DNA of 64,000 nucleotides. It comes from Pseudomonadota bacterium (lineage in GTDB: Bacteria > Pseudomonadota > Gammaproteobacteria > Steroidobacterales > Woeseiaceae). The notes beneath the pieces were generated by a model. The model saw nothing but the letters and a program-made list of their open reading frames with translations. It searched no databases and was not told where the DNA came from. The DNA lies in contig JBCBBH010000001.1 in the NCBI GenBank assembly GCA_038531945.1, forward strand, positions 147,456-211,455, read 5' to 3'. Both the position numbers and the translations under genes were made by a program. Shown here one piece after another: positions 24,282 through 49,919 of this stretch; position 1 is the first letter of the stretch; the number at the start of each line of letters is the position of its first letter.

Positions 24282-24358
24282 GCTAACGTAGCTCAATGTG
24301 GCAGAGCAGCTGTCTTGTAAACAGCCGGTTGTGAGTTCAACCCTCACCGTTAGCTCCA
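24282..24358 (+). tRNA. tRNA-Thr(TGT)
   Basis: Full cloverleaf folded by hand. Acceptor GCTAACG/CGTTAGC, D arm TAGCTC..GAGC, anticodon loop CTTGTAA, T loop TTCAACC, CCA encoded. Confidence 0.8.
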
Positions 24359-24363
24359 TTTAT

Positions 24364-24448
24364 GGAGAGGCAATCATTGGCGAGAATAGCCGGCTGTAAC
24401 CCGGTGGTCCTTATGGCCTTGTAGGTTCAATTCCTACCCTCTCCACCA
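24364..24448 (+). tRNA. tRNA-Tyr(GTA), long variable arm
   Basis: Acceptor GGAGAGG/CCTCTCC, anticodon loop CTGTAAC, long variable arm, T arm GTAGG-TTCAATT-CCTAC, CCA. The D arm is atypical. Confidence 0.65.
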
Positions 24449-24450
24449 AC

Positions 24451-24522
24451 GGATCGGTAGCTGAGACAGAATAGCGGCTGGCTGAAGACCAGCAGACGAT
24501 GGTGCGACTCCATCCCGATCCA
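24451..24522 (+). tRNA. non-canonical tRNA-like gene, anticodon GAA (Phe-like)
   Basis: Perfect 7-bp acceptor GGATCGG/CCGATCC. Anticodon stem-loop GCTGG-CTGAAGA-CCAGC. The D loop lacks G18G19 (AGACAGAA) and the T loop is TGCGACT, so T54-Psi55-C56 is absent. No encoded CCA. Confidence 0.45.
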
Positions 24523-24526
24523 CCGT

Positions 24527-24602
24527 TGCCGTGTAGCTCAACAGGTAGAGCAGCCGACTGTTACTCAGTTTGTTGATGGTTCAAATCCATCCATGGCAGC
24601 CA
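24527..24602 (+). tRNA. tRNA-Asn(GTT)-like
   Basis: Acceptor TGCCGTG/CATGGCA with disc G and CCA. Canonical D and T arms. Anticodon loop CTGTTAC with C37 and one C-A mismatch in the anticodon stem. Confidence 0.55.
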
Positions 24603-24606
24603 CCCC

Positions 24607-24682
24607 GGGGGATTAGCTCAACGGGTAGAGCACCTCGTTTGCAACGAAAAGGCTCTCGGTTCAAATCCGAGATCCTCCACCA
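24607..24682 (+). tRNA. tRNA-Ala(TGC)-like (G3:U70 present)
   Basis: Acceptor GGGGGAT/ATCCTCC with a G3-U70 wobble. Canonical D and T arms. Anticodon loop TTTGCAA, but the anticodon stem has two C-A mismatches at its base. Confidence 0.5.
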
Positions 24683-25152
24683 AATTTCGAGTCATCGGTA
24701 TTACCGAGGCTCTTGATAGCGGCCTGGCGCTGCTAACCGTCGGTAACGGCGGGAAAGGAACGCACCCATGGCGTTTCGCCGAGACTTGAGTTTCGGTCAC
24801 TCCAGGCAAGTTCGGCCTCCGGTTGTTCTCGGCACTGTCGGGAATAGCGGCCAAGCGATACGCGGAAGTAGCGTGACTGACGCACCGGCAATGTCGGGAA
24901 TGCGGGTCCGTGAAAGAACACGTGGTGGTGCAACCCGCGACACCAATATCGTCAACCGTGAGAGGTAACGAATAGTGCAGTTCAGTGCGAGCCTTGCAGG
25001 CAAGTGCGACTGTGCAGAAGGCGAGGGTTCTGGTGGTCAGCCAGCGTCCTTTTCATCGGTCAAGTAGCCGGCAGGTGAACGACATTCGGCGTGTTGTATT
25101 TCGTCGCCCAAAAGGTGGCGAAGCGACTGAGGCGCGCACGTCGCAGTGGGAT

Positions 25153-25223
25153 TGTGATTTAGCTCAATGGCAGAGCGATTGCCCAGCAAGCAATAGGTGC
25201 AGGTTCGACTCCTGTGTTCACGA
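25153..25223 (+). tRNA. non-canonical tRNA-like gene (anticodon loop CCAGCAA, C33, A34-G35-C36)
   Basis: Canonical D arm (TAGCTCAATGGCAGAGC) and T arm (GCAGG-TTCGACT-CCTGT). Perfect anticodon stem ATTGC/GCAAT. The loop carries C33 and A34. The acceptor has one mismatch. No CCA. Confidence 0.35.
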
Positions 25224-25579
25224 CTAACGTCAAACGCAAAGACGCGCCTCGGTACGCCGTCGAAAATGGCTTAAGGCCGGAGTCTACGGACAATCCGGCG
25301 GTTGGATCAGCCGCAAGTTGATCGGACCTTGGCAGCAAGCCGCACGGTCGGGAAGCCCCCGTTTGGAGCCCGCAAGGCTCACGGTACGCAAGCTGCTGAC
25401 TAGACGTGTACTACAAGTGCATCGCCGCACTTCAAAAAAGGCAGTCATGGTCTTCGACTGTCGAGTTGGCTTCGGCCAATCGGCAGTGGACAAGCACGCA
25501 ACGAGTGTCACGCACGGCATTCGGTACTCGTGCGAACGGAGGACTACAAAGCGCCTAGTCTCAGCGCTTTTCCTTTTCC

Positions 25580-25655
25580 GCCACGATAGCTCAATCGGAA
25601 GAGCATCGGATTGTCGATCCGAAAGATGTCGGTTCGAGTCCGATCCGTGGCGCCA
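25580..25655 (+). tRNA. tRNA-Asp(GTC)
   Basis: Cloverleaf folds cleanly. Anticodon loop TTGTCGA, T loop TTCGAGT, CCA. One A-C mismatch at 7-66. Confidence 0.8.
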
Positions 25656-25661
25656 TTCTTC

Positions 25662-25737
25662 GATCCTGTGGGCTAACGGTTAGGCCACCAGACTTTCAAT
25701 CTGGGGATTGCGAGTTCGAGTCTCGCCAGGATCACCA
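25662..25737 (+). tRNA. tRNA-Glu(TTC)
   Basis: Acceptor GATCCTG/CAGGATC, anticodon loop CTTTCAA, T arm GCGAG-TTCGAGT-CTCGC, CCA. Confidence 0.8.
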
Positions 25738-25739
25738 AA

Positions 25740-25866
25740 TGACCAGTAGCTCAGCGGGTAGAGCACACGCCTGATATGCGTGAGGTCGCACGTTCAACGC
25801 CAGGCAGGATGCCTCAGTGCCGCGTAGCACAGGACGTGCGAGAGCGGCCCGTCGCCTGGTCAACCA
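25740..25866 (+). tRNA. split/interrupted tRNA-Ile(GAT)-like gene (about 68-nt insertion replacing the T arm)
   Basis: The 5' half is canonical: acceptor TGACCAG, D arm, and anticodon arm CACGC-CTGATAT-GCGTG plus variable AGGTC. The matching 3' acceptor CTGGTCA-A-CCA is found only at 25856-25866. The intervening 25788-25855 forms three hairpins rather than a T arm. Confidence 0.35.
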
Positions 25867-25872
25867 AACACT

Positions 25873-25949
25873 CTGCGTGTAGCCAAACTGGATAAGGCCC
25901 CTGACTTCGAATCAGGAGATTGAGAGTTCGAGTCCCTCCGCGCAGGCCA
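25873..25949 (+). tRNA. tRNA-Arg(TCG)
   Basis: Acceptor CTGCGTG/CGCGCAG, anticodon loop CTTCGAA, T loop TTCGAGT, CCA. One mismatch in the T stem. Confidence 0.7.
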
Positions 25950-25955
25950 AACACT

Positions 25956-26033
25956 CTGGGAGTAGCTCAGCCTGGTCAGAGCACTTGCCTTGGAAGCAAG
26001 GGGTCGCTGGTTCAAGTCCAGCCTTCCAGACCA
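25956..26033 (+). tRNA. tRNA-Pro(TGG)
   Basis: Acceptor CTGGGAG/CTTCCAG, anticodon stem-loop CTTGC-CTTGGAA-GCAAG, T arm GCTGG-TTCAAGT-CCAGC, CCA. Confidence 0.8.
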
Positions 26034-26058
26034 ACGTTTCGAAACCGGAGCGCTACAA

Positions 26059-26146
26059 GGAGACTCGCATGGCTGGCGTGCTTATCGGTCTTGAAAACCG
26101 TGATGTCCTGACGGGCGTGGGGGTTCGATCCCCACAGTCTCCGCCA
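26059..26146 (+). tRNA. tRNA-Ser(TGA), long variable arm
   Basis: Acceptor GGAGACT/AGTCTCC, anticodon CGGT-CTTGAAA-ACCG, long variable arm, T loop TTCGATC, CCA. Position 8 is C and the D arm is atypical. Confidence 0.65.
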
Positions 26147-26152
26147 ATCGAT

Positions 26153-26230
26153 GGTGTATCTAGCTTAATCGGCAAAAGCTCCGGGCCGTGACCCCGGGAG
26201 ATATCGGTTCGAGTCCGATGATTCACCCCA
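26153..26230 (+). tRNA. tRNA-His(GTG) with G-1 and C73, anticodon loop CCGTGAC (C33)
   Basis: G-1 is present and the discriminator is C, the His identity set. Anticodon stem CCGGG/CCCGG. The loop has C at position 33 instead of the near-universal U. One T-T mismatch in the acceptor. Confidence 0.6.
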
Positions 26231-26236
26231 ATTCAT

Positions 26237-26328
26237 GGAGATGTGGCCGAGTGGCTTAAGGCACTCGTTTGCTAAACGAGAGAGGGCTCGAAAGTCCTTC
26301 CCAGGTTCGAATCCTGGCATCTCCGCCA
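26237..26328 (+). tRNA. tRNA-Ser(GCT), long variable arm
   Basis: Acceptor GGAGATG/CATCTCC, D arm TGGCCGAGTGGCTTAAGGCA, anticodon CTCGT-TTGCTAA-ACGAG, long variable arm, T loop TTCGAAT, CCA. Confidence 0.8.
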
Positions 26329-26337
26329 TTTGTCTAT

Positions 26338-26408
26338 TGAGAGGGAGGCGGTCTCAGACGAGAGTCATAACCTCGTTGTCGTCGGTTCGAATCCGACCCT
26401 CTCGACCA
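26338..26408 (+). tRNA. tRNA-like gene with CAT anticodon and truncated D arm (71 nt)
   Basis: Acceptor TGAGAGG/CCTCTCG with A and CCA. T arm GTCGG-TTCGAAT-CCGAC. Anticodon loop GTCATAA. Only about 14 nt are available for the D region. Confidence 0.4.
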
Positions 26409-26477
26409 TTACTTTCTAGCTCAGCCGGCATAACGTCGCTCTCGCAGAGAGGCAGTCGGCGAGAAAATCGAACAACT

Positions 26478-26555
26478 ACGGCTATAGCTCAGCGGAAAAA
26501 GAGCGCGACCGTGCGAAGGTCGAGGACGGAGGTTCAAATCCTTCTAGCCGTGCCA
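26478..26555 (+). tRNA. tRNA-Arg(GCG)
   Basis: Perfect acceptor ACGGCTA/TAGCCGT, D arm TAGCTC..GAGC, anticodon CGACC-GTGCGAA-GGTCG, T loop TTCAAAT, CCA. Confidence 0.65.
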
Positions 26556-26561
26556 AACCAT

Positions 26562-26636
26562 TCAGCGATCGTCTAACCGGTAGGACACCAGACTTTGACT
26601 CTGGAAGTAGAGGTTCGATTCCTCTTCGCTGAGCCA
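26562..26636 (+). tRNA. tRNA-Gln(TTG)
   Basis: Perfect acceptor TCAGCGA/TCGCTGA, anticodon CCAGA-CTTTGAC-TCTGG, T arm AGAGG-TTCGATT-CCTCT, CCA. Confidence 0.8.
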
Positions 26637-26641
26637 ACAAC

Positions 26642-26715
26642 AGGTCGCTCTTCTAACGGCAAGATAACGGATTCCAAACCCGTGAATCGGTGTTCGACTC
26701 ACCGGCGGCCTGCCA
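26642..26715 (+). tRNA. tRNA-Trp(CCA)
   Basis: Acceptor AGGTCGC/GCGGCCT, anticodon loop TTCCAAA, T arm CGGTG-TTCGACT-CACCG, CCA. Confidence 0.75.
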
Positions 26716-26721
26716 ACAACT

Positions 26722-26796
26722 GATGCTGTGGTCAAATGGCAAAGGCGCGAGGTTGCAACCCTCGAGATGACAGTTCAACTCTGTCCAGCATCTCCA
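26722..26796 (+). tRNA. tRNA-Cys(GCA)
   Basis: Perfect acceptor GATGCTG/CAGCATC, anticodon CGAGG-TTGCAAC-CCTCG, T arm GACAG-TTCAACT-CTGTC, CCA. Confidence 0.8.
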
Positions 26797-30013: not shown

Positions 30014-30089
30014 GAATCGATAGCTCAATCGGCAGAGCACCCGGCTCTTACCCGGGAGGTTGTGAGGTCGGAACTCACTCGATTCACCA
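30014..30089 (+). tRNA. tRNA-Lys(CTT), T loop GTCGGAA (non-canonical T54)
   Basis: Perfect acceptor GAATCGA/TCGATTC with A and CCA. Anticodon CCCGG-CTCTTAC-CCGGG. T stem GTGAG/CTCAC, but the loop starts with G rather than T. Confidence 0.6.
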
Positions 30090-30095
30090 AACAAT

Positions 30096-30170
30096 AGCCC
30101 GATAGCTCAGCAGTAGAGCACCGCTCTCACAAAGCGGAGGTCGGTGGTGCAACCCCACCTCGGGCGACCA
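30096..30170 (+). tRNA. non-canonical tRNA-like gene, anticodon CAC (Val-like)
   Basis: Anticodon CCGCT-CTCACAA-AGCGG. The D loop AGCAGTA lacks GG and the T loop is TGCAACC, the same co-variation as in the Phe-like gene at 24451. A1-G72 mismatch. CCA encoded. Confidence 0.45.
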
Positions 30171-30307
30171 CTTTTGACGCAATTCCGTCATACCGAGGTC
30201 TGAATTGTCGCCAAGTTCTGCGGACCGGGTTCTTTGAATTCCCGACTGGCGCGCAACGCTAACCATCGCCGCGCGTGTACCGAACGAAACGGCATTCTCA
30301 CCGCCAC

Positions 30308-30384
30308 TGGAAATTAGCTCAGATGGGTAGAGCATACGACTCATAATCGTACGGTCGCAGGTTCAACTCCTGCATTTCCCACCA
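30308..30384 (+). tRNA. tRNA-Met or tRNA-Ile2 (CAT)
   Basis: Anticodon TACGA-CTCATAA-TCGTA. Canonical D and T arms. The 1-72 pair is a T-C mismatch. CCA. Confidence 0.7.
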
Positions 30385-32728: not shown

Positions 32729-32804
32729 GGTGAATGTAGCTTAATGGCAAAGCCCCAGGCCGTGACCCTGGAAGATGCCGGTTCGACCCCGGTGGTTCAC
32801 CCCA
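32729..32804 (+). tRNA. tRNA-His(GTG) with G-1/C73, anticodon loop CCGTGAC (C33), second copy
   Basis: G-1 plus discriminator C. Anticodon stem CCAGG/CCTGG with the same C33-containing loop as the His gene at 26153. One G-G mismatch at 7-66. Confidence 0.55.
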
Positions 32805-32810
32805 AACACT

Positions 32811-32888
32811 AGCCGTCTGAAGGGAATTGGCATACCTACCTGTCTTAGAAACAGGTGCTTCTCGGTTCGACTCCGAGGGCGGCTACCA
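32811..32888 (+). tRNA. Leu-anticodon (TAG) tRNA with short variable arm (class-I-like)
   Basis: Leu-type D loop (GGAATTGGCA) and A73. Perfect anticodon stem CCTGT/ACAGG with loop CTTAGAA. It has a 5-nt variable loop in place of the long arm that all bacterial tRNA-Leu normally carry. Confidence 0.55.
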
Positions 32889-44873: not shown

Positions 44874-45413
44874 CTAGCCGGATTCACCTTCCAGTGGAAC
44901 ACGCACTGACACCGCCACGATTTCGTACAGCGGACCCGCTTTGAAAGCCCCGGGTTTGCCAGCGTCCTTGCTGAAGTGCTCGGCCTGGGCTTGCGTCAAC
45001 TCGTGGCTCTTGAGCACGCCATGTAACGTCACGGTGCGGCCCGCTATGTTGGTCGGCACAAAAAACTCATAGTCCTTGAACGAAACTCGAACGACATGTT
45101 GACCGTCCTGCGCGACCAGGAAACAACCTTTCTTCTGGCAAACCTGTTTGACCGTGGTCTCTATCTGAACTTCTTGATCGACGAATTCGGGGGCTTTTAC
45201 CATGACATCAGCAAGACTCTGAAGGGAATCTACGGCAGGCATTGGAACCCCAAAAGTCTCATGAGTCGTGGTGACTTCGACCGGATCGGACAAACGTATG
45301 ATGCGCTTCTCGTCCGCGACAAGCGCGCTGCTGCAAAAACCGAATAGCAGGGAAATGCCTGCAAACCGCACGACCTGCGACCATGACTTTCCTCTGTCTC
45401 GTGTTCTGCTCAT
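44874..45413 (-). CDS. hypothetical secreted protein
   Basis: Signal-like N-terminus. No confident family assignment. Confidence 0.35.
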   Translation of the reverse strand: MSRTRDRGKSWSQVVRFAGISLLFGFCSSALVADEKRIIRLSDPVEVTTTHETFGVPMPAVDSLQSLADVMVKAPEFVDQEVQIETTVKQVCQKKGCFLVAQDGQHVVRVSFKDYEFFVPTNIAGRTVTLHGVLKSHELTQAQAEHFSKDAGKPGAFKAGPLYEIVAVSVRVPLEGESG

Positions 45414-45508
45414 CCGTTTTCTCGCTGTGGTGACGGTGTCTTATTGGAGAATACCAGCAACCAAATGGCCAAAGAACACACTGTCCGTCAATGACAGCAA
45501 ACAAAATA

Positions 45509-45537
45509 TTGACATATTTGCACAAACACGCAAATAT
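45509..45537 (+). promoter_or_regulatory. promoter with overlapping ArsR/SmtB-type operator (8-bp inverted repeat ATATTTGC-N8-GCAAATAT)
   Basis: TTGACA at 45509-45514 and AAATAT near 45532-45537. A perfect inverted repeat lies at 45514-45521 / 45530-45537, directly upstream of the arsR-like start at 45544. Confidence 0.5.
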
Positions 45538-45543
45538 AAATAA

Positions 45544-45867
45544 ATGACTACAGACCAGACAGAGTCCCTCGCCAACCTTCTCAAGGCACTGGGAGAGTAC
45601 AACCGACTTTCTATGGTCTATGAGCTGTGCAATTGCCAGGCCCCGCGAAATGCGATGTGTTTGTGCGAATGCTGCAGCGTCGATGCCTCAGTCGCATCGC
45701 GGCACCTCAAAGTGCTCGCGCAGGAAGGCATTGTGAAAATCGAAAAAAAAGGTCGGGAGCGAATTTACTCGCTCAACCGAACCGATATCGCAACAAGATT
45801 GCGGGCCCTCGCGAATCAGATTGAAGCGGAGCCCAGTGTAGAACCCCTTCAGGGAGTGTCGTTATGA
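45544..45867 (+). CDS. ArsR/SmtB-family metal-sensing transcriptional repressor
   Basis: wHTH core with metal-site cysteines (ELCNCQ..., LCECCSVDA). Confidence 0.8.
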   Translation: MTTDQTESLANLLKALGEYNRLSMVYELCNCQAPRNAMCLCECCSVDASVASRHLKVLAQEGIVKIEKKGRERIYSLNRTDIATRLRALANQIEAEPSVEPLQGVSL

Positions 45868-45959
45868 CCGAAGAGAAGAAATGTCCGTGTGAGTGTGGCG
45901 GTGGCCCGTGCTGCAAAGAAGGCACCTGTAAGTGCTGCGCTAAGGACTGCTGCTGCTAG
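45864..45959 (+). CDS. cysteine-rich mini-metallothionein-like peptide (31 aa, 11 Cys), not in the ORF track
   Basis: The ATG overlaps the arsR stop (ATGA). It translates as MTEEKKCPCECGGGPCCKEGTCKCCAKDCCC and is followed by a terminator. Confidence 0.45.
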   Translation: MTEEKKCPCECGGGPCCKEGTCKCCAKDCCC

Positions 45960-46011
45960 CGCCGCGTGAGGTGCTCTCAGTGCGCGCCCTGCGGCACTGA
46001 AAATACACTTC

Positions 46012-46048
46012 GAACGAAATCCCGAAATGCCGCGCATCTCGGGATTTT
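46012..46048. terminator. bidirectional rho-independent terminator
   Basis: TCCCGA...TCGGGA hairpin followed by a T-run. It lies between the convergent metallothionein and EEP genes. Confidence 0.5.
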
Positions 46049-46055
46049 TTATGCG

Positions 46056-47186
46056 TTAGTCGTCGGCAGCCCTTTCAAGCGTCATCACCAACGGCAGGTG
46101 ATCCGACACGCCGCGGCGGCGTTCCAGGTCGAACCGTCGCACCGTGCCGTCCCGTTTGAGTTGCTCGCCGTACTCGTCAGCGATGAACACCCCGCCCTTC
46201 TTCAGTTGCCATGCGACACCCGCCTGTTTCGCGGGTGAGTACAACACCATATCGAGGAACGACCAACTCTTGCCCGTCGACCAGTAATTTGTGCCGATGC
46301 AACCCTCGCAATCGACCTCATGTGCGACCGTCCAGAACGGACGTACGCGATCGTCCATGATGGTCGTATCTTTCATTTCGCGTGCAGGTGTATTGAAGTC
46401 GCCTGCCGCAAACACCGAATGATCCGGCGGCACGTCGGCGCGAAGGGCATTCAGGTGATCATAGGCAATTTCACGAAGCTCAATCGGGTGATACGGCGCT
46501 GGGAAGTGCGCCGAGAATCCGGTCAGACGCTGACCATCGGGCAGTTCAAACGTCGCTTCTAGAATACCGCGCGTGTCATCCGCTCGATCCGGAAAATCCG
46601 ACGCATCGAAATCATGCAACACGGGTTTCCCGACCAATGGCAATCGCGACAAAAATCCGACATCAATACCGCGTATGTCACGCCCTTCAAGTAGCACGAC
46701 CGTCTCGTAGCCCGCTGGTTGAAGATAGTCGTCCGCGAGACGTTTGAGGATGCCGATGTTTTCGACCTCCTGCAAAGCGACAACATCCGGACCACGACCA
46801 TCGTTCACCTGGAGAATCGTCGCTGCGAGTTGGCGCAACTTGAAGTCGACCGCATCCTCGGTCCAATCGAGCTCAAGACACTCCTCTCGCCATTTCGGCA
46901 CTTCTACGGGTTCGCACAACGCAATATGTGCAGTATTCCGCTTCGCGCTGACCGGTAGATATGCGTGATCGCTCTTGCCTGGGTCATCTTTGGCGTCGAA
47001 CAGATTCTCAACGTTGAACGTCATGATGGTCACAACGGGATTGGTCCGCGCATCGTTCGGTTGCGCTCGATCCATCGTGCATGCGCCCAACACAATCGCA
47101 GCGCATCCCAATAGTGTCCGGCTCAATACTTTCCCGACGAGGTTGTCGAAGTTATTATATCGACAAATTTTAGACGTCTTATCCAT
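46056..47186 (-). CDS. endonuclease/exonuclease/phosphatase (EEP) family protein, secreted
   Basis: EEP motifs (TFNVENLFD, DVVALQEVE, SDHLPLV). The signal/lipobox is LLGCAAIVLGAC. The start is probably the internal ATG near 47186. Confidence 0.7.
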   Translation of the reverse strand: MDKTSKICRYNNFDNLVGKVLSRTLLGCAAIVLGACTMDRAQPNDARTNPVVTIMTFNVENLFDAKDDPGKSDHAYLPVSAKRNTAHIALCEPVEVPKWREECLELDWTEDAVDFKLRQLAATILQVNDGRGPDVVALQEVENIGILKRLADDYLQPAGYETVVLLEGRDIRGIDVGFLSRLPLVGKPVLHDFDASDFPDRADDTRGILEATFELPDGQRLTGFSAHFPAPYHPIELREIAYDHLNALRADVPPDHSVFAAGDFNTPAREMKDTTIMDDRVRPFWTVAHEVDCEGCIGTNYWSTGKSWSFLDMVLYSPAKQAGVAWQLKKGGVFIADEYGEQLKRDGTVRRFDLERRRGVSDHLPLVMTLERAADD

Positions 47187-47521
47187 AAGCCACAAAAATA
47201 AATCGCTTGTGTGACTGAGAGATAACTCTCTATATTTATTGATTTTATTCAGCACTCTCGCCCTTTCTTCGACTATGCTGCGCTTGAAATTCAGAATTTA
47301 GGCGTCATTATGGAGTCTGCAGGTAGCCAGTGTTGCATCTGGTTGTCTAAGACAGTCGAATTCTCAATCGATCTTTTCCGCGAAAGACTCGATCGGTAAC
47401 ACCGGTTGCCGATTGTCTGCCCTCACAACTTTGTACTCGCTTCGCCTTTGGCTGGGAACCCGTAGTGCGGGACCGAGTTAATCGGGCGACCACGACATTA
47501 ACTGGATCGAAGGAACGTGAA

Positions 47522-48469
47522 ATGATGAACTCCTCCGCGTTGTTGGCAGAAATGCCGGATATTGCAGCCAGACAACATTTGCATCCACAAGGAACACTGG
47601 ACTGGGTCGGCATGAGCAATGTGCACGTGCCGCTGCACATCTCAGATGGCGGCGACGCGCACCGGGTTGCCGCGAAAGCGCAGATCTACGTGAACCTCGA
47701 AGACCCGCAAGCCAAAGGCATTCACATGTCGAGGCTGTATTTGATGTTGGATGAAAGCGCGGCAACACACGCATTGACCCCTGCAGTTATGAGCGAACTG
47801 CTAGGCGGCATTTTGGATTCACACAACGATTTGAGTTCGCGTGCGTTCATTCAGTTTGATTTTGAACACCTGCTTCGCCGCCCGGCGCTGTTGTCCGACA
47901 ACTCAGGCTGGAACAACTATCCCGTCAAGTTGAAAGGCACGTTCATCGATGGCGAGCTTCGTCTCGAATTGGGCGTGACGGTGCAGTACTCATCGACCTG
48001 CCCTTGCTCTGCCGCGCTGTCACGGCAGATCATCCAGTCGCAATTCGATAAGGACTTCGCCGGCAAGGCAACAGTCTCGGCGGCGGATGTACGCGCTTGG
48101 CTCGGCACCGAAGAAGGCATCGCGGCCACGCCGCATTCGCAACGCAGCGAAGTGCACATTCTGACGCGGCTTGAAGCCGGTGCCGATGAGTTTCCGATCA
48201 CGGATTTGATCAACCAGATCGAAGACACTTTGCAAACGGCGGTACAAACTGCCGTGAAGCGGGAAGACGAGCAGGAATTCGCACGTCGTAATGCCGCGAA
48301 TTTGATGTTCTGCGAGGACGCCGGCCGCCGCGTGCAGAAGGCACTGAACAACGATGGGCGTTTCGCAGACTTCTGGGTACGCGTCGAGCATATGGAAAGC
48401 TTGCACCCGCATGACGCGGTCAGCATCGTGACCAAGGGTGTTGAGAACGGCTACTTGCCTATTCCGTAA
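47522..48469 (+). CDS. folE2: GTP cyclohydrolase FolE2 (type IB / MptA family)
   Basis: FolE2 family signature region (HLHPQGTLDWVGMSNVHVPL...GIHMSRLY). Start re-set to ATG 47522 with an AAGGA RBS. Confidence 0.85.
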   Translation: MMNSSALLAEMPDIAARQHLHPQGTLDWVGMSNVHVPLHISDGGDAHRVAAKAQIYVNLEDPQAKGIHMSRLYLMLDESAATHALTPAVMSELLGGILDSHNDLSSRAFIQFDFEHLLRRPALLSDNSGWNNYPVKLKGTFIDGELRLELGVTVQYSSTCPCSAALSRQIIQSQFDKDFAGKATVSAADVRAWLGTEEGIAATPHSQRSEVHILTRLEAGADEFPITDLINQIEDTLQTAVQTAVKREDEQEFARRNAANLMFCEDAGRRVQKALNNDGRFADFWVRVEHMESLHPHDAVSIVTKGVENGYLPIP

Positions 48470-48767: not shown

Positions 48768-49919
48768 TTGCTTGCCATGACCACAAGTTTGCAAAACCAA
48801 CTGGATCCCGATTTTGTATTCGATGTGGTGGTCGTCGGAGCTGGTGCCGCGGGGATCGGGGTAGCGGTCGCGTTGAGACATGCGGGTATCGAGAAATTTA
48901 TTGTGTTGGAGCGTGATCGAGTGGGTTCCTCGTTTGCGAATTGGCCAGCGGAAACGCGCTTTATAACGCCATCCTTTCCAACCAACTCAGTGGGGATGCT
49001 CGACCTGAACTCTGTTGCGATTGGGGTATCGCCCGCCTTCAGTATGGAGGTCGAACACCCAACTGGACCGCACTACGCAGAGCACCTCGGGGCAGTAGCT
49101 GACCATTTTGATTTACCGATCTATGAGCAGACGGAGGTCAACAGCGTTACACGTCAGAATGCCACTTTTGACCTCGATACGAGTGAGGGCACCTTACGAT
49201 CAAAGCATCTGATCTGGGCCGCTGGCGAGTTTCAATTTCCTCGTAAAAATGGCTTTGCTGGCGCTGAGCATTGTCGACACACAGCGACTGTCGCGAGCTA
49301 TGACGACATCGAGGGCGACGATGTCATCGTGATCGGAGGATTTGAAAGCGGGATCGATGCAGCGTATCACCTCGCCTATCGCGGCAAGCGCGTTCGCGTC
49401 TTCGATAGTCGTTGCCCGTGGGAAAGCACGAGCTCAGATCCGAGCATCACACTATCGCCATTTACTTTGGAGCGCTTCCGTGAGCCCGTATTCTCCGAGC
49501 AAGTCTCGCTATTCCCAAACACACCGGTGACTTCAGTTGAGCAAGTCAGTGATGGTTATCACGTCATCGACGGCAATGGCGCTACTCACCGCACGAGCGC
49601 GTCTCCGTTATGGGCTGGTGGCTTCGACGGCGGTCATAGTCAGATTGGAAATTTGTTCGTATCCCGCCCAGATGGCCTGCCCGAATTGAGCGAAAACGAT
49701 GAATCGACACGAACGCCAGGGCTATTTCTTTGCGGGCCTTCGGTGCGACACGATAACCATGTGTTCTGTTTTATTTACAAGTACCGACAACGTTTCGCGG
49801 TCGTTGCCAAAGCCATCGCAAACTCGCTGGACGTACCTGCAGAGGGACTGAAGGAATACCGCGTATGGGGAATGTATCTCGACGATCTCTCTTGTTGTGG
49901 AGGTGAATGTGTATGTTAA
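48768..49919 (+). CDS. FAD/NAD(P)-binding oxidoreductase (flavin monooxygenase-like)
   Basis: N-terminal dinucleotide-binding motif FDVVVVGAGAAGIGVA and a second GG motif (VIVIGGFESG). Cys-rich C-terminus. Confidence 0.7.
   Translation: MLAMTTSLQNQLDPDFVFDVVVVGAGAAGIGVAVALRHAGIEKFIVLERDRVGSSFANWPAETRFITPSFPTNSVGMLDLNSVAIGVSPAFSMEVEHPTGPHYAEHLGAVADHFDLPIYEQTEVNSVTRQNATFDLDTSEGTLRSKHLIWAAGEFQFPRKNGFAGAEHCRHTATVASYDDIEGDDVIVIGGFESGIDAAYHLAYRGKRVRVFDSRCPWESTSSDPSITLSPFTLERFREPVFSEQVSLFPNTPVTSVEQVSDGYHVIDGNGATHRTSASPLWAGGFDGGHSQIGNLFVSRPDGLPELSENDESTRTPGLFLCGPSVRHDNHVFCFIYKYRQRFAVVAKAIANSLDVPAEGLKEYRVWGMYLDDLSCCGGECVC

Follow-up and report, generated by a model that had tools for sequence, protein, structure and literature searches.

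A six-cysteine ArsR/SmtB repressor and an overlooked, metallothionein-like micropeptide gene form a conserved two-gene cassette in mostly marine bacteria

Directly behind a gene for an ArsR/SmtB-family repressor, on the forward strand of a 64,000-nucleotide stretch of contig JBCBBH010000001.1 (a gammaproteobacterium of the Woeseiaceae; the whole stretch is called here the window), lies an open reading frame (ORF) for a peptide of 31 residues, of which 11 are cysteines. Is such a micro-ORF a gene and, if it is, what would its product do? A first-pass annotation of this DNA had read the pair as a SmtB/ArsR repressor translationally coupled to a metallothionein-like peptide. The comparison with relatives described below leaves hardly any doubt that the micro-ORF is a genuine gene under selection and, with considerably more reserve, leads us to favor the interpretation that the two genes constitute a metal-derepressed, self-regulating cassette that makes an ultra-short metallothionein-like peptide, its function being the part that we infer.

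The repressor gene, encoding 107 residues, occupies positions 45544-45867 (+) and the micro-ORF, whose product MTEEKKCPCECGGGPCCKEGTCKCCAKDCCC is 35% Cys, positions 45864-45959 (+); both are found in the sequence and in the ORF list where the first-pass annotation had placed them, and the ATG of the micro-ORF does overlap the TGA of arsR as ATGA (45864-45867). The first piece of evidence on the reality of the micro-ORF came from scanning a single genome for each species, which returned 127 loci with this ArsR subfamily, 80 of which were fetched (81 loci when the window is included). At least 127 species-level genomes, mostly marine, thus carry the cassette; they belong to Gammaproteobacteria (Halieaceae, Woeseiaceae, Pseudomonadales, Thiotrichales and others), Planctomycetota and Cyanobacteria (Leptolyngbyaceae, Phormidesmis), with singleton loci binned as Chloroflexota, Bdellovibrionota and Calditrichia. 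Wherever the sequence beyond arsR can be read (79 genome loci), a Cys-rich micro-ORF follows it, in one case (L041) as a truncated version with 9 Cys. The contig of the 80th locus (L001) stops 22 nt past arsR, just after ATG-ACC-GAA (MTE), which are the first three codons of the window peptide. Hence the reading frame, whose lack of conservation in related genomes had been named as grounds for giving up the proposal, is kept, and the suggested search for similar Cys-rich micro-ORFs behind arsR genes found one in every readable locus of this subfamily. The same pairing was met from the opposite side, since a metagenome scan for CECCKxxCCC with a degenerate DNA pattern matched 108 stretches, 80 of which were taken as loci, and 37 of these further contigs also have arsR and its operator upstream. 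In this ArsR subfamily the association between repressor and peptide is obligate.

How selection acts on the micro-ORF can be read from an alignment of 72 peptides. They are 29-37 residues long and follow the pattern M-x3-5-C-x-C-x-C-x4-CC-x4-C-x-CC-x3-CCC-stop, with nine invariant Cys columns and two that are at least 90% conserved, and both TGT and TGC are used at every conserved Cys column. At the positions between the cysteines, K, E, D, N, T and S replace one another, and an E-K-T/S stretch and a K are conserved. The ratio of nonsynonymous to synonymous change (pN/pS, Nei-Gojobori), calculated with synonymous sites saturated, is 0.01 at Cys codons and 0.30 overall. In addition, an AGGAG/GGAG-type motif, read by eye and unscored, precedes the ATG in nearly all 72 loci, at a distance of no more than about 12 nt and typically of 5-10 nt; in the window, the Shine-Dalgarno sequence is AGGGAG at 45851-45856 (+), 7 nt 5' of the ATG and within the 3' end of arsR. 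The conservation of Cys in the face of free TGT/TGC use, the pN/pS values and the Shine-Dalgarno motif point to purifying selection on a translated product, and this, together with the joint conservation of ORF, operator and ArsR in the 80 fetched loci, rules out a chance ORF. One element of the first-pass annotation did not survive as a property of the system, namely translational coupling: the ATGA overlap occurs at 6 of the 72 junctions (the window included), other overlaps at 6, and the remaining 60 have a spacer of 1-86 nt. The constant feature at the junction appears to be the peptide's own ribosome-binding site, with coupling incidental.

If the micro-ORF is translated, it might still be that translation matters and the product does not, the ORF acting as a leader or attenuator that senses cysteine or Cys-tRNA, as the mycobacterial polycysteine short ORFs do. 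Cys-rich regulatory ORFs are described in a preprint (bioRxiv 10.1101/834739), and three consecutive Cys codons close the present ORF. However, the gene order largely refutes such a role, as the micro-ORF is the last and not the first gene of its operon. In the window it is followed by an intrinsic terminator at 46017-46050 (+), found with a repeat finder and by folding, with a 14-bp stem (AAATCCCGAAATGC/GCATCTCGGGATTT), a 3-nt loop and T6; the hairpin itself (46017-46047) has a folding energy of −18.2 kcal/mol (z = −3.3) and lies between the cassette and a convergent gene of the endonuclease/exonuclease/phosphatase family, 46056-47255 (−). Furthermore, the next downstream gene is convergent in 45 of 64 loci, none is conserved, and the spacing of the Cys and several other residues (E-K-T, K) are under constraint, all of which makes an attenuator scarcely credible. 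The terminator had been announced as the end of the micro-ORF, which is right as regards the hairpin and its T6 and approximate as regards position, because the hairpin begins 57 nt past the stop codon. We make no claim for its conservation in the family: a loose detector found hairpins 3' of the micro-ORF in 35 of 72 loci and in 101 of 317 control windows, and thus discriminates weakly. A search of Rfam over 45400-46100 gave no RNA family at E ≤ 1, and a known riboswitch or small RNA is therefore absent from the region.

The neighborhood contains no other constant partner. All-against-all clustering of the ORFs within 3 kb across loci yielded no conserved family except arsR, and Pfam scans of 67 upstream and 64 downstream neighbors showed every family to be limited to four loci or fewer. 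In the absence of other conserved neighbors, the unit is a self-contained, stand-alone two-gene cassette of about 540 bp with the peptide gene last. This bears on the notion that the peptide gives rise, as a precursor, to a product that is modified or secreted, be it a RiPP (a peptide made on the ribosome and modified after translation), a bacteriocin or a signal peptide. The ORF is small and Cys-rich, with a size that would suit a precursor, but no modifying enzyme, protease or transporter is conserved within 3 kb in 80 loci, the conserved Cys core amounts to the whole peptide, with neither a leader/core architecture nor a signal sequence, and the gene is under a repressor of metalloregulator type. 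As only arsR is conserved and families recur in at most 4 of the 64-67 immediate neighbors, this candidate was rejected as very improbable. Base composition around the cassette gives no sign of a foreign island. In the window, the divergent gene at 44874-45413 (−) encodes a DUF4920 protein, apparently with a signal or anchor at its N-terminus; no such gene is found near the cassette in the other 80 loci.

What, then, controls the cassette? A repeat finder identified in the window a perfect inverted repeat, ATATTTGC/GCAAATAT, with 8-nt arms and an 8-nt spacer, exactly as first described. The operator extends over 45514-45537, with ATATTTGC at 45514-45521, the middle element ACAAACAC at 45522-45529 and GCAAATAT at 45530-45537, and its pattern occurs once in the window even when three mismatches are allowed (chance expectation, 0.11). 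The arrangement TTGAC(A)-ATATTTGC-N8-GCAAATAT is kept across phyla in 81 of 81 loci with at most three mismatches, 80 of them preserving the 8-nt spacing. As N8 is usually RCAAATAW, the family consensus is ATATTTGC-RCAAATAW-GCAAATAT, that is, three 8-bp repeats composed of a 16-bp palindrome, ATATTTGC|GCAAATAT, and a third, direct GCAAATAT, the middle repeat being degenerate in the window (ACAAACAC). The −35 box TTGACA (45509-45514, +) overlaps the left operator arm, and in almost every one of the 81 loci the operator is directly adjoined by TTGAC or a version differing by one base. Seventeen nucleotides past it, inside the right arm, stands the −10-like hexamer AAATAT (45532-45537, +), a putative promoter element whose position is conserved because it forms part of the conserved GCAAATAT. 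The claim that the operator overlaps the promoter is thereby upheld and extended to the relatives, and at the sequence level the arrangement is that of autoregulation, with an inverted repeat over the −35/−10 region in every locus. A generic sigma-70 scan chose a different site in the window, ATGACA-16-CATATT at 45491-45518 (+), which may be noise or an additional promoter peculiar to the window; TTGACA-N17-AAATAT is preferred on account of its conservation in the 81 loci.

The start codon of arsR lies 5-7 nt past the operator box in 75 of the 81 loci and, in the window, is immediately preceded by an in-frame TAA. This leaves no room for a Shine-Dalgarno sequence, and therefore arsR is probably translated from a leaderless mRNA, and the peptide from a strong Shine-Dalgarno of its own.

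The nature of the repressor is the next clue. The 107-residue protein matches the NCBIfam model for metalloregulators of the ArsR/SmtB type (NF033788, 57.8 bits, cutoff 55) and narrowly misses Pfam HTH_5 (20.7 bits, cutoff 22). Its best sequence matches in PDB are CadC (1u2w, E = 2.5e-8) and CzrA, and C52 and C58-V-C60 of CadC, the alpha3 metal ligands, align with its LC29 and C39-L-C41. An AlphaFold (AF2) model built with 18 homologs reached a mean predicted local distance difference test (pLDDT) score of 68.8, which is moderate, and comprises helices at residues 3-28, 48-60 (recognition) and 79-94 (alpha5) and a beta-hairpin wing at 64-77. The top Foldseek matches of this model in PDB are all ArsR/SmtB proteins (CzrA, CadC, NmtR and SmtB; probability 1.0, template modeling score about 0.5). 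Family membership was thus assigned correctly from the start. Residues 29-47, which bear all six Cys, form a low-confidence coil, as would be expected of a metal-dependent segment. About 400 homologs at 65-80% identity are found in a large protein collection, and among 18 diverse ones C29, C31, C39, C41, C43 and C44 are invariant and the alpha5 His ligands are absent. The sensor is consequently predicted to be an all-thiolate, alpha3-type site, different from the alpha5 zinc site of SmtB and CzrA and with an exact six-Cys arrangement that is not a described site type. With CadC of Staphylococcus aureus pI258, an alpha3N sensor of Cd, Pb and Zn, identity is about 30% even though it is the best match; the cassette repressor lacks the N-terminal arm Cys of CadC (C7/C11) and an alpha5 site, and has the extra invariant C31, C43 and C44. 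In R773 ArsR, an alpha3 sensor of As(III), the first, third and sixth residues of the motif CVCDLC are Cys, and so are those of CLCECC here. CadC and R773 ArsR regulate an efflux pump, whereas the cassette repressor is predicted to regulate a peptide gene.

Which metal might be sensed? ZigA/COG0523, ZnuA or FolE2 is encoded within 3 kb in 15 of the 81 loci, in several phyla. These are typical zinc-homeostasis genes of the Zur-regulon type, FolE2 being a zinc-independent paralog of GTP cyclohydrolase. The ZigA adjoining the L075 cassette is an equivalog match (630 bits, above cutoff), and the same holds for FolE2 in the window (47465-48469, +; 321 bits, above cutoff). On account of these neighbors Zn(II) appears to be the most likely physiological metal, an assignment held loosely, because an all-thiolate sensor suits Cd, Pb, Cu(I) and As(III) equally well and these are candidates too. 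In 7 loci the vicinity of the cassette encodes a Pyr_redox_3 flavoprotein, only distantly YpdA-like, whose C-terminus is Cys-rich. The copy in the window (48768-49919, +) adjoins the FolE2 gene and has the C-terminal end CCGGECVC, and the region of the two genes looks like a zinc-economy neighborhood.

The strict one-to-one association of the peptide with a single ArsR subfamily, with no other conserved target gene, also invites the idea that the peptide is a regulatory partner of ArsR, a metallochaperone or anti-repressor comparable to CopZ in its relation to CopY, which would set the response threshold and store no metal in bulk. The single copy of the operator in the window and the fact that Cys clusters are central to both proteins would fit. 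Nevertheless, variants of the peptide in phages and elsewhere occur without ArsR, pointing to an ArsR-independent function, and, with a strong Shine-Dalgarno before the peptide gene and an apparently leaderless arsR, the peptide would be made in large stoichiometric excess. We therefore regard a partner role as unlikely.

These ArsR-free variants deserve attention, as they provide the most serious challenge. Among the loci found with the DNA pattern, some 20 low-GC (low guanine plus cytosine) marine contigs encode a 30-residue, 10-Cys sister peptide, MTEVKCKCKPPYTCCVEKTCECCKDKCCCK, and variants of it, about 60% identical and without ArsR, from which an ArsR-independent function of the peptide would follow. 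In 17 of 18 contigs checked, the sister gene lies 10-70 nt 3' of an IscU/NifU-like gene (for example L113:7950-8431 (−) and L095:3655-4140 (+), with about 20 further loci within L082-L155). The contigs are those of T4-like myoviruses, with genes for baseplate hub, wedge, tube cap and head closure; 21 are syntenic, and the phage IscU matches the auxiliary-gene family phrog_8429. Five IMG/VR viral contigs (uncultivated viral genomes, UViGs) carry the peptide DNA pattern, and the operator pattern is absent from IMG/VR. The phage-type peptide found no match in INPHARED, where a low-complexity filter may have hidden matches, and tblastn of ArsR found none in plasmids. Longer forms exist as well. 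A 47-residue, 19-Cys form, MSKHNNCCDNGCQCCGGNCDCEGCEKGKPCSCGCDCECCKKECCCIV, with the C-terminal CDCECCKxxCCC is found in L115, L131, L143 and L154, and a variant of it in L088, L137 and L152; in most of its low-GC marine contigs it is preceded by a conserved ORF of about 50 residues (..VIDVHLNEDDI.YHYF.NRELRRV..), which was looked for in all of them but L152 and is absent from L154. In L091 (JGI12316J15310_10000002), an internally duplicated peptide of 56 residues, MTTSTCDCTCQSKSCC...CECCKESCCC, stands behind an arsR of the same family, which suggests growth by tandem duplication. Finally, four high-GC (57-62%) contigs without arsR (L096, L106, L121 and L150) contain other Cys-rich ORFs (e.g., MGKPA...CCECCKEGCCCP..CCCK..), which may represent another unannotated Cys-rich peptide family.

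From the phage contigs an alternative emerges in which the peptide is a thiol-rich helper of iron-sulfur (Fe-S), sulfur or redox metabolism, and ArsR senses thiol-reactive stress instead of metal. The peptide could remove Zn or Cu from IscU, transport Fe/S or persulfide, or be a sacrificial thiol, and the repressor would respond to persulfide, an oxidant or an electrophile, as BigR and SqrR do. Besides the position of the sister gene behind iscU, this alternative can draw on a weak similarity of the repressor to the BigR and TsoR models, on the presence of SqrR and RexT among its fold neighbors and on the YpdA-like flavoprotein of the 7 loci. Yet the Cys of the repressor occupy the alpha3 CxC position of metal sensors, and BigR and SqrR use an alpha2/alpha5 Cys pair, unlike the cassette ArsR. 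Eleven Cys clustered as CxC, CC and CCC are the hallmark of metal-thiolate clusters, and the bacterial cassettes have genes of zinc homeostasis as neighbors instead of isc, suf or sulfide genes. Moreover, shielding IscU from Zn or Cu would in itself be a metallothionein-type activity. On balance, a helper of this kind is possible and clearly the less probable explanation. Much the same weight is given to its broadest form, a tentative one in which the peptides of about 30 residues ending in CECCKxxCCC are a large and nearly unannotated superfamily, present in several bacterial phyla with the six-Cys ArsR and in marine T4-like phages, co-transcribed with iscU, and would primarily serve Fe-S assembly and not the bulk detoxification of metal, for instance by keeping Zn or Cu off IscU or by carrying Fe/S.

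The metallothionein-like interpretation draws in the first place on the peptide itself. The 31 residues of the window peptide, arranged as CxCxC...CC...CxCC...CCC, include no F, W, Y or H; most relatives have the same composition, with a single His in a few (e.g., L019, L024, L027 and L055) and a Tyr in L067 and L077. Low mass, about 30% Cys, motifs such as CxC, CC or CxxC and few or no aromatics or His are what the broad (Kagi) definition of a metallothionein asks for, and on this point the first-pass annotation was borne out, now for a coding gene under purifying selection. The alpha domain of mammalian metallothionein likewise has about 31 residues and 11 Cys, which hold an M4S11 cluster. 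That domain, the 25-residue Cu-metallothionein of Neurospora and yeast Cup1 resemble the cassette peptide in size and chemistry (CxC and CC motifs, hydrophilic spacers, no aromatics), but no sequence homology links them (PDB profile, E = 10; Pfam metallothionein families), the order of the Cys motifs differs and the terminal CCC is unusual. Among bacterial proteins, MymT (the Cu(I) metallothionein of Mycobacterium) and the Pseudomonas metallothioneins are also small, Cys-rich and metal-binding; they belong to other sequence families, of about 50-80 residues, with His or aromatics and different regulators.

The genetic arrangement is reminiscent of SmtB-SmtA from Synechococcus PCC 7942, BxmR-BmtA and AzuR-NmtA, in which an ArsR/SmtB repressor also stands beside a gene for a small Cys-rich metal-binding protein. 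With SmtB-SmtA it shares a palindromic operator over the promoter and, presumably, the logic of metal derepression followed by sequestration. The differences are substantial. SmtA has about 56 residues, so the cassette peptide is about half its size, and it lacks His and aromatics and falls outside the BmtA/SmtA Pfam family. The cassette genes are co-transcribed, with an apparently leaderless arsR first, whereas smtB and smtA are divergent, and its repressor has a six-Cys alpha3 segment in place of the alpha5 Zn site of SmtB.

These observations can be integrated in a model. When thiophilic metal is low, ArsR dimers would occupy the three-repeat operator, which spans the spacer and the −10 of the promoter, so that the bound repressor would block transcription. 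Metal would then fill the all-Cys site in the alpha3 region (six invariant Cys, no alpha5 His/Asp site), the DNA affinity of metal-loaded ArsR would fall and the operon would be transcribed. As the mRNA would begin at or next to the arsR AUG, synthesis of the repressor would be kept low, while the 29-37-residue peptide, with its strong Shine-Dalgarno, would be produced in excess over it. The peptide would fold around a metal-thiolate cluster, leaving hydrophilic K/E/D/T/S spacers, and would buffer or sequester the inducing metal; about four divalent ions on 11 thiolates are possible, as in the mammalian 11-Cys alpha domain. With sequestration, free metal would fall and the negative-feedback loop on ArsR would close.

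Several points weigh against this model. The Zur-regulon-type neighbors mark scarcity of zinc and not excess, and they are present at only 19% of the loci. The predicted all-thiolate site is closer to the Cd/Pb site of CadC than to the classical alpha5 Zn sites, and it also resembles the As(III) motif CVCxxC of R773 ArsR more than those Zn sites. The structural model is only of moderate confidence, with the Cys segment unstructured. The phage peptide, behind iscU and without ArsR, hints at a role in Fe-S assembly over simple detoxification. Lastly, the peptide has no detectable homology to described metallothioneins, so that the name would rest on composition and context.

How could such a widespread gene go unnoticed? 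The prediction that annotation would easily miss it proved accurate: in the annotation of a contig with the same sequence as the window, arsR and the following gene are called and the micro-ORF is not, and ten exact family peptides, including those of RefSeq genomes, are absent from a collection of 15 billion proteins. Gene callers skip the micro-ORF because it is at or below their length cutoff. A family profile recovered only 7 relatives, all unnamed, among 5.8 billion predicted proteins; phmmer with a single peptide against 1.84 billion representative proteins gave 0 matches, an uninformative result with so short and biased a query and ORFs so rarely called. The window peptide has no Pfam or NCBIfam match at E ≤ 1, and 55 family peptides have none at E ≤ 10 apart from noise to LSR. 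The window peptide has no His and does not match the hidden Markov model of the BmtA/SmtA family (Pfam Metallothio_Pro), whose fold resembles a zinc finger with Cys and His ligands, and the profile of the cassette peptides found nothing in PDB at E ≤ 10. Full-text literature searched by topic and by peptide words, subscription-only papers excluded, contains no description of the family. A 2026 paper names only the BmtA/SmtA, mycobacterial and Pseudomonas metallothioneins, its introduction listing, outside cyanobacteria, the mycobacterial and Pseudomonas ones only (PMC13578184). Within the literature searched, the peptide family is thus undescribed, and the logic of an ArsR/SmtB repressor plus a metallothionein is the classical smtB-smtA theme, already known also from AzuR/NmtA (PMC8790569).

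Elsewhere in the window, an Rfam scan located 20 tRNA genes, all on the forward strand, between 24282 and 32884 (15 at 24282-26793, 3 at 30014-30381 and 2 at 32730-32884), an unusually dense array.

Bacterial metallothioneins are regarded as rare and as comprising few families, namely BmtA/SmtA, MymT and the Pseudomonas proteins (PMC13578184), to which the cassette would add a much smaller one, of 29-37 residues. Its repressor would be a clean model for ArsR sensors with all-Cys sites, and the 540-bp unit, with its own sensor and a compact, conserved promoter and operator, would be a ready-made part for metal biosensing or sequestration. The presence of the cassette in the cultured Parahalioglobus pacificus KCTC 23430 and Phormidesmis sp. 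LEGE 11477 makes the predictions directly testable. The iscU-linked relatives bear on the viral manipulation of host metal and Fe-S metabolism and, should the superfamily proposed above be real, phages carry a metallothionein-like auxiliary gene. For the bacteria themselves, most of them marine, the cassette bears on how trace metals, zinc in particular, may be buffered.

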